A stretch of DNA of 64,000 nt. It comes from Escherichia coli. GTDB lineage: Bacteria; Pseudomonadota; Gammaproteobacteria; Enterobacterales; Enterobacteriaceae. The notes below the pieces were generated by a model. That model was not told the origin of the DNA. It saw only the letters and a program-made list of their open reading frames with translations, and did no database searches. A program made the position numbers and the translations under genes. Position 1 is the stretch's first letter; every line of letters begins with the position of its first letter. Positions 57,917 to 58,413 of the stretch are shown in pieces. The DNA is taken from assembly GCF_003334405.1 (NCBI RefSeq), contig NZ_QOWM01000002.1, one strand, 5' to 3'.

Positions 57917-58413
57917 TTCGAGTAGAAATTCCCATTGATGCGCCGGGTATTGATGCCCTGCTGCGTCGCTCATTCGAAAGTGATGCGGAAGCGAAGCTGG
58001 TTCACGATCTGCGTGAAGATGGCTTTCTGACGCTGGGGCTGGTGGCGACAGATGACGAAGGTCAGGTCATTGGCTATGTGGCATTTAGTCCGGTTGATGT
58101 GCAGGGCGAAGACCTGCAATGGGTCGGCATGGCACCGTTGGCGGTTGATGAAAAATACCGTGGACAGGGGCTGGCACGCCAACTGGTCTATGAAGGACTC
58201 GATTCGCTTAATGAGTTCGGCTATGCCGCAGTGGTGACGCTGGGCGATCCGGCGCTGTACAGTCGTTTCGGCTTTGAACTGGCGGCGCATCACGATCTGC
58301 GTTGCCGCTGGCCGGGCACTGAAAGCGCCTTCCAGGTACATCGTTTAGCGGATGACGCGCTGAATGGCGTTACCGGCCTGGTTGAGTATCACGAGCATTT
58401 CAATCGCTTTTAA
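57910..58413 (+). CDS. yhbS: GNAT-family N-acetyltransferase YhbS
   Basis: 167 aa ORF; GNAT motif region QGLARQLV; overlaps ubiT stop. Confidence 0.93.

Follow-up and report, generated by a model that had tools for sequence, protein, structure and literature searches.

A conserved, probably frozen 14-nt tail-to-tail overlap of yhbS (hqbA) and yhbQ in Escherichia coli, and a partly conserved stem-loop in the adjoining yhbQ tail

Analysis of a 64,000-nt stretch of Escherichia coli DNA (hereafter the window) revealed that the overlap between the convergent genes yhbS (also named hqbA) and yhbQ is real but ordinary: it is annotated, catalogued and already known. The 3' ends of the two genes have 14 nt in common, as an earlier note on this DNA had claimed, and the open reading frame listing and RefSeq agreed on this point. 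In our reading, which we hold to be probable rather than certain, the junction would be a frozen tail-to-tail overlap and not a dedicated regulatory device. Each transcript would end by Rho action inside the partner gene, with a hairpin shielding the 3' end of the ubiT-hqbA mRNA. The coordinates of the features discussed are collected in Table 1.

Table 1. Features at the yhbS/yhbQ junction and at other convergent junctions of the window
Feature	Position in window	Strand	Description
ubiT CDS	57392-57916	+	RefSeq annotation; first gene of the ubiT-yhbS (hqbA) operon
ubiT/yhbS overlap	57910-57916	+	7 nt, co-directional; yhbS ATG at 57910, ubiT end at 57916
yhbS (hqbA) CDS	57910-58413	+	167 aa; stop TAA at 58411-58413; GNAT acetyltransferase / Hfq-binding protein
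yhbQ CDS	58400-58702	-	100 aa; stop TGA, the reverse complement of 58400-58402 (TCA); GIY-YIG nuclease
yhbS/yhbQ overlap	58400-58413	both	14 nt, tail-to-tail CDS overlap
Palindromic stem-loop	58418-58455	folds in both transcripts	16 bp with one bulge; yhbQ codons 83-95; starts 5 nt after the yhbS stop
Read-through RNA of ubiT-yhbS	58456-58620	+ (antisense to yhbQ)	C-rich, G-poor; candidate Rho loading region
Read-through RNA of yhbQ	57970-58180	- (antisense to yhbS)	C-rich, G-poor; candidate Rho loading region
Second strong fold	58510-58554	-	-23.5 kcal/mol; within yhbQ, sense orientation
Divergent yhbQ/yhbP interval	58703-58752		starts only 50 bp apart
Terminator-like site	58904-58916	-	GCGCGTGGCGCG then TTTTTTCTTC; inside yhbP, ~260 nt after the yhbO stop; consensus match only
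Terminator-like site	59234-59250	+	CGGCTGGTAACCAGCTG then ATCTTTATCA; inside yhbO, 38 nt after the yhbP stop; consensus match only
yhbP/yhbO overlap	59176-59196	both	21 nt, tail-to-tail; yhbP + (58753-59196), yhbO - (59176-59694)
yrbL/mtgA overlap	~9584-9587		4 nt, convergent
argG/yhbX gap	~38681-38687		7 nt apart, convergent

The pair consists of two genuine protein genes on opposite strands with 3' nucleotides in common. YhbS has been crystallized (PDB 4RS2) with a sequence that reaches F167, the full length, and it has been found as tagged or native protein and described as an Hfq-binding regulator (PMC10710024, PMC10470549). In YhbQ, residues 4-76 matched the GIY-YIG domain (E = 4.5e-16), leaving residues 77-100 as a tail, and homologues of the protein are present in the PDB. 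A comparison of both proteins with NCBIfam gave no match at 1e-5 for either. RefSeq annotates the identical two coding sequences in an E. coli chromosome that is 100% identical over a 2-kb query (window 57300-59300), and also in MG1655, where the coordinate equals 3358668 minus the window coordinate with the strands flipped. The same 2-kb query was matched at 95-100% identity in 5425 of 5426 complete E. coli genomes. Re-annotation to a shorter YhbQ or YhbS cannot remove the overlap, because stop codons fix both 3' ends; this way of abolishing it was ruled out.

The genes around the junction (ubiT, yhbS, yhbQ, yhbP and yhbO) are packed very closely, on alternating strands. Among them, the short overlap of ubiT with yhbS fits translational coupling in the published ubiT-yhbS operon. 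The two genes were shown by RT-PCR to be a single, Fnr-regulated transcription unit (PMC10470549, PMC10710024). UbiT is induced ~35-fold by Fnr under anaerobiosis (PMC10710024), and HqbA is made aerobically too (PMC10470549, PMC10710024). One strain, E. coli MSB1_9I (NZ_LR890508.1), carries an IS1A insertion inside the 2-kb ubiT-yhbO stretch, which splits the match into two pieces.

The length of the overlap was highly conserved in the Enterobacteriaceae. We examined 81 loci, 80 of them from different species collected with YhbQ as query and one from a second E. coli chromosome (L001); YhbQ identity ranged down to 71%, and the overlap was counted from each gene's frame to the first stop. The two genes overlapped in 76 loci, by 14 nt in 66, by 4 nt in seven, by 17 nt in two and by 25 nt in one. 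Five loci had no overlap, and in one of these yhbS is frameshifted. The apparent lack of overlap in Leclercia adecarboxylata NCTC13032 (L053) is explained by yhbS, which appears interrupted in the assembly; the yhbS and yhbO matches there end at residues 103 and 108, and these interruptions look like assembly indel errors or pseudogenes. In Enterobacter sp. R1(2018), an ERIC repeat lies exactly between yhbQ and yhbS (L055:3300-3412) and separates them by 113 nt; the ERIC2 primer sequence is matched exactly at L055:3352. A shorter, related insert was found in Buttiauxella noackiae (L065:3286-3355), where it leaves a gap of 70 nt between the genes.

The constancy of the 14-nt length could be traced to the C-terminal codons of yhbS. 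On the yhbS strand, the yhbQ stop reads in reverse complement as T-Y-A across the codons Phe164 (TTY) and Asn165 (AAY), for which E. coli uses TTC and AAT. Read backwards, TTY-AAY contains TRA, and so either Phe164 codon yields a yhbQ stop (TGA or TAA). The yhbQ stop lay on these two codons in every 14-nt locus, that is, the window and 65 others. The C-terminal HFNRF sequence of YhbS was nearly invariant across the 81 loci, with few variants, and the last three residues of YhbQ took 13 forms, including KSD, KND, KTD, KHD and RSD. The YhbQ residues tracked synonymous changes in yhbS, with the Arg codons CGC, CGT and CGG giving Ser, Asn and Thr, respectively. Thus, the yhbQ stop and the 14-nt length are fixed through purifying selection on the YhbS C-terminus. 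The comparison across loci showed YhbS to be the constrained partner, with the YhbQ end as a passenger and the overlap apparently frozen rather than selected for itself. The neighboring yhbP/yhbO overlap was conserved in like manner, at 21 nt in 31 and 15 nt in 14 of the loci that carry yhbO, together 45.

Overlaps of this kind are frequent. By one count, E. coli has 663 overlapping adjacent gene pairs, 75 of them convergent (PMC4161906), and within the window three of the nine convergent CDS pairs overlap. At the transcript level, Conway et al. found complementary 3' ends in 276 of 370 convergent E. coli operons (75%), with a mean length of 286 nt (PMC4161252). In a set of 58 E. coli RNA-seq experiments, ExcludonFinder (NAR 2025) found 165 convergent overlaps that recur in at least half, yhbQ-yhbS and yhbO-yhbP among them; the yrbL/mtgA and argG/yhbX pairs are on the same list (PMC12288877). 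The antisense overlap of the 3' transcript ends proposed in the earlier note was borne out by this listing and by the genes themselves: complete yhbS and yhbQ mRNAs are complementary over at least 14 nt, because both coding sequences contain those nucleotides. Transcript overlap at convergent genes does not by itself imply regulation, since the 3' ends of convergent E. coli operons overlap as a rule.

The note had further stated that neither gene has room for its own terminator. This held insofar as there is zero intergenic space. It did not hold as a statement about 3'-end signals, which can sit in the coding sequence of the partner; a stem-loop of -24.9 kcal/mol and C-rich RNA in both directions are located there. 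The stem-loop has the sequence CGGGGTTTGCAGACTG-CTTAA-CAG-C-TCTGCAAACCCTG, and its predicted folding energies were -24.9 kcal/mol in the plus (yhbS) sense and -22.9 kcal/mol in the minus (yhbQ) sense (z = -6.0 and -4.3 against shuffles). The G+C-rich hairpin of an intrinsic terminator is therefore present, and a U-tract directly after it is absent: the sequences that follow are UGCGCCUUCCGC in the plus sense and CGGAGAUUAAAAGC in the minus sense, both without a U-tract. A scan for consensus terminators gave six matches in the region, against 2.5 ± 1.6 expected, none of them at the yhbS/yhbQ junction. A canonical intrinsic terminator was rejected for this junction, as the U-tract was found in none of the lineages inspected. 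The stem-loop was also rejected as the yhbQ terminator, for it lies upstream of the yhbQ stop.

The base composition on both sides of the junction would suit the loading of Rho. On the plus strand after the yhbS stop, the GC skew was -0.19 to -0.25 and the C/G ratio 1.4-1.7 (78-nt windows) over ~200 nt, at about the 90th-95th percentile of the window. The read-through RNA of yhbQ reached C/G ratios of 1.8-2.4 at 220-430 nt past the yhbQ stop, at the 95th-99th percentile. Dar and Sorek described Rho-dependent transcripts in which a U-less stem-loop protects the trimmed 3' end and the rut site lies just downstream (PMC6061677). On the 3' side of yhbS the sequence is arranged alike: the stem-loop is stable and U-less, and RNA rich in C and poor in G follows it directly. 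The Term-seq and Rho tables of Adams et al. 2021, searched by gene name and by coordinate prefix, listed no 3' end or Rho-dependent region for yhbS or yhbQ, and the TERMITe and SMRT-Cappable-seq supplements had no entry for them. For the neighboring pair yhbP/yhbO, there is direct support for Rho-type termination inside the partner gene. The bicyclomycin-sensitive region that Adams et al. 2021 reported at MG1655 3299102(-) corresponds to window 59566(+), antisense in yhbO and ~370 nt past the yhbP stop. Rho appears to stop a plus-strand transcript, most simply that of yhbP, only after ~370 nt of yhbO.

Mutual interference between yhbS and yhbQ, the consequence suggested in the earlier note, is possible. 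On this reading, ubiT-hqbA and yhbQ would be antagonistic as an excludon, through collision of RNA polymerases, RNase III cleavage of the duplex or both, and anaerobic induction by Fnr would lower yhbQ expression. The recurrence of the transcript overlap in at least half of the 58 RNA-seq sets (PMC12288877) is consistent with such a role, as are the strong dependence of the convergent flux on oxygen implied by the ~35-fold Fnr induction of UbiT, the lack of a canonical terminator between the genes and the conservation of the arrangement across the family. However, 75% of convergent E. coli operons overlap likewise, and the coding constraint on YhbS alone accounts for the conservation of the 14 nt. 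In published work, the yhbS phenotype changed little when yhbQ or yhbP was deleted on a plasmid, a result that bears on this direction and not on the reverse. The strong hairpin and the C-rich RNA would also tend to limit read-through. We judge an antagonistic device of this kind to be unlikely.

The stem-loop in the yhbQ tail, which is partly conserved, is the only item at this locus that is new, and only mildly so. It is about the tenth strongest 45-nt fold in the 64-kb window, and its strength alone is weak evidence because many comparably strong folds sit inside open reading frames. One such fold was noted further upstream in yhbQ itself (Table 1). Across species, the yhbS sense folded no more stably, by minimum free energy, than did the sense of yhbQ. 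RNAalifold gave no consensus structure for all 61 sequences, and no RNA family matched at the junction when window 56500-60500 was compared with Rfam (E-value up to 1). The sole Rfam match in this interval, to CRISPR-DR22 at 57324-57360 (E = 0.32), was rejected as chance. We used explicit pair counts and per-sequence tests, since the stem register shifts among genera and several genera have no hairpin.

These tests indicated pairing beyond that expected from shuffled sequences. Paired cells amounted to 66.9%, compared with 60.2 ± 0.7 in shuffles and 34-51% when the partners were slid. At least six distinct stem sequences retained pairing, in Escherichia, Citrobacter, Salmonella, Trabulsiella, Buttiauxella, Franconibacter and Siccibacter. 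Covariation was seen at pair 44-76, which is GC in 24 and CG in 22 sequences, and at pair 46-74, which is UA in 36 and CG in five; one side of the compensatory pairs is often a synonymous site. When the E. coli codons were replaced synonymously, the native sequence (-25.1 kcal/mol) was far more stable than its recodings (-13.8 ± 3.0), and none of 200 recodings was as stable. In the same test across 76 loci, 27 had z < -2, and 28 had z > -1, with a weak or absent hairpin, for example in Kosakonia, Klebsiella, Kluyvera and Pseudocitrobacter.

The tail peptide itself is conserved, as G-x-G-F-E-A-L-L-x-S-L-Q or G-F-E/A-A/E-L-L-x-S-L-Q-T-P, and it may account for part of the palindrome as a side effect. 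Carried to its conclusion, this would mean that the hairpin has no role at the RNA level and merely reflects a conserved C-terminal peptide with self-complementary codons. The peptide motif was conserved even where the hairpin is weak, and the hairpin was retained in the yhbQ tail of both Enterobacter sp. R1(2018) and B. noackiae, so that it stays with yhbQ when the ERIC element or the related insert parts the genes. Comparable hairpins in other open reading frames of the window also fit a by-product. By contrast, the excess stability over synonymous recodings (0/200 in E. coli; z < -2 in 27 of 76 loci), the GC/CG and UA/CG exchanges at the two covarying pairs, and the pairing kept by at least six stem sequences across genera speak against a mere by-product. 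We consider a hairpin entirely without RNA-level function conceivable but somewhat doubtful.

Variation within E. coli bears on the same question. The 70-nt junction segment (58396-58465) was more polymorphic within the species than its surroundings: among the 5426 genomes, 2592 matched it at ≥99%, 1210 at 95-99% and 812 at 90-95%, and ~800 had no megablast match. In four variant strains (L085-L088), the body of yhbS was only 0-2 bases per 50 nt off the window sequence. The hairpin ranged from -17 to -27 kcal/mol across the window and these four strains. Two of the four carried an uncompensated C-to-A change (YhbQ G84V), a common variant that weakens the hairpin. This polymorphism, and the uncompensated change in particular, is again in line with a by-product of the peptide.

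The stability of the fold in both RNAs (-24.9 and -22.9 kcal/mol) raised another reading, by analogy with known terminators. The stem-loop might be a collision-type bidirectional terminator inside an open reading frame, which would make polymerases from either direction pause, with head-on collision then ending transcription at a defined point. The lack of strand preference across species, and the location at a convergent junction of an element that does not resemble an intrinsic terminator, would agree with the description of that class. However, on the yhbQ transcript the 3' edge of the hairpin lies 15 nt short of the first base of the stop codon, so polymerases that terminate at it would leave non-stop yhbQ mRNAs, and many genera have the overlap without the hairpin. 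Such a function seems improbable.

A more far-reaching idea is that selection has acted on the palindrome in yhbQ codons 83-95 for two uses. The element would encode the YhbQ tail and, at the same time, form an RNA boundary within the open reading frame, be it for pausing, collision or 3' protection, that insulates yhbQ from Fnr-induced ubiT-hqbA transcription; the tail peptide would then have been shaped in part by selection on RNA structure. We regard this as speculative and rather unlikely.

The frozen overlap with Rho-type ends, which we favor, would operate as follows. The yhbQ gene and the ubiT-yhbS operon abut without a spacer, and the yhbQ frame simply continues to its first in-frame stop, provided by the conserved yhbS codons Phe164-Asn165. 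Each mRNA has to end within the opposite gene because there is no intergenic DNA. The read-through RNA, untranslated and rich in C, would presumably be terminated by Rho. The U-less stem-loop at the start of this RNA on the yhbS side could act as a pause site and become the end of the ubiT-hqbA mRNA that is protected from 3' exonucleases. Antisense overlap of the two mRNAs would be an automatic consequence, one found at most convergent operons of E. coli, and any interference with yhbQ would be expected to scale with Fnr-induced transcription of ubiT-hqbA.

The yhbS/yhbQ overlap matters little in itself, being part of the reference annotation, already listed and of a common type. It offers a worked example of how an exact overlap length is kept across a family, with the C-terminal codons of one partner supplying the stop of the other. 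Some interest is added by the genes involved, as hqbA, which encodes an Hfq regulator, belongs to an operon with ~35-fold induction by Fnr. Should the stem-loop set the hqbA 3' end or shield yhbQ from transcription of that operon, the locus would be a small case of a 3'-end signal placed within the coding sequence of a neighbor.

Among known systems, the junction corresponds most closely to the convergent overlapping gene pairs of prokaryotes, in which a short common 3' stretch is created by the positions of the stop codons. In such pairs the overlap is more conserved than its flanks because one change hits two frames, and likewise in yhbS/yhbQ. There is no essential difference from this class; the detail particular to yhbS/yhbQ is that YhbS clearly dictates the sequence and YhbQ is the passenger. 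The likeness to Rho-dependent 3' ends with a protective stem-loop is also close, with a U-less stem-loop past the stop and C-rich RNA next to it, as judged from the sequence at yhbS. However, the stem-loop of typical Rho-dependent ends lies in the 3' UTR, whereas that of yhbS lies inside the coding sequence of another gene. The collision-type bidirectional terminators (Ju et al. 2019; Wang et al. 2022) share with our stem-loop a palindrome at a convergent junction; both RNAs can fold into hairpins, and there is no likeness to an intrinsic terminator. They are situated between gene ends, whereas the present stem-loop lies within the yhbQ frame upstream of its stop and cannot end a complete yhbQ mRNA. 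Finally, excludons (Sesto et al. 2013; Conway et al. 2014; ExcludonFinder 2025) have the complementary 3' ends of opposite neighbors seen here, and yhbQ-yhbS is in the 'excludome' list. Excludons are defined by mutually exclusive expression or RNase III processing, whereas yhbQ-yhbS was listed from RNA-seq coverage only.
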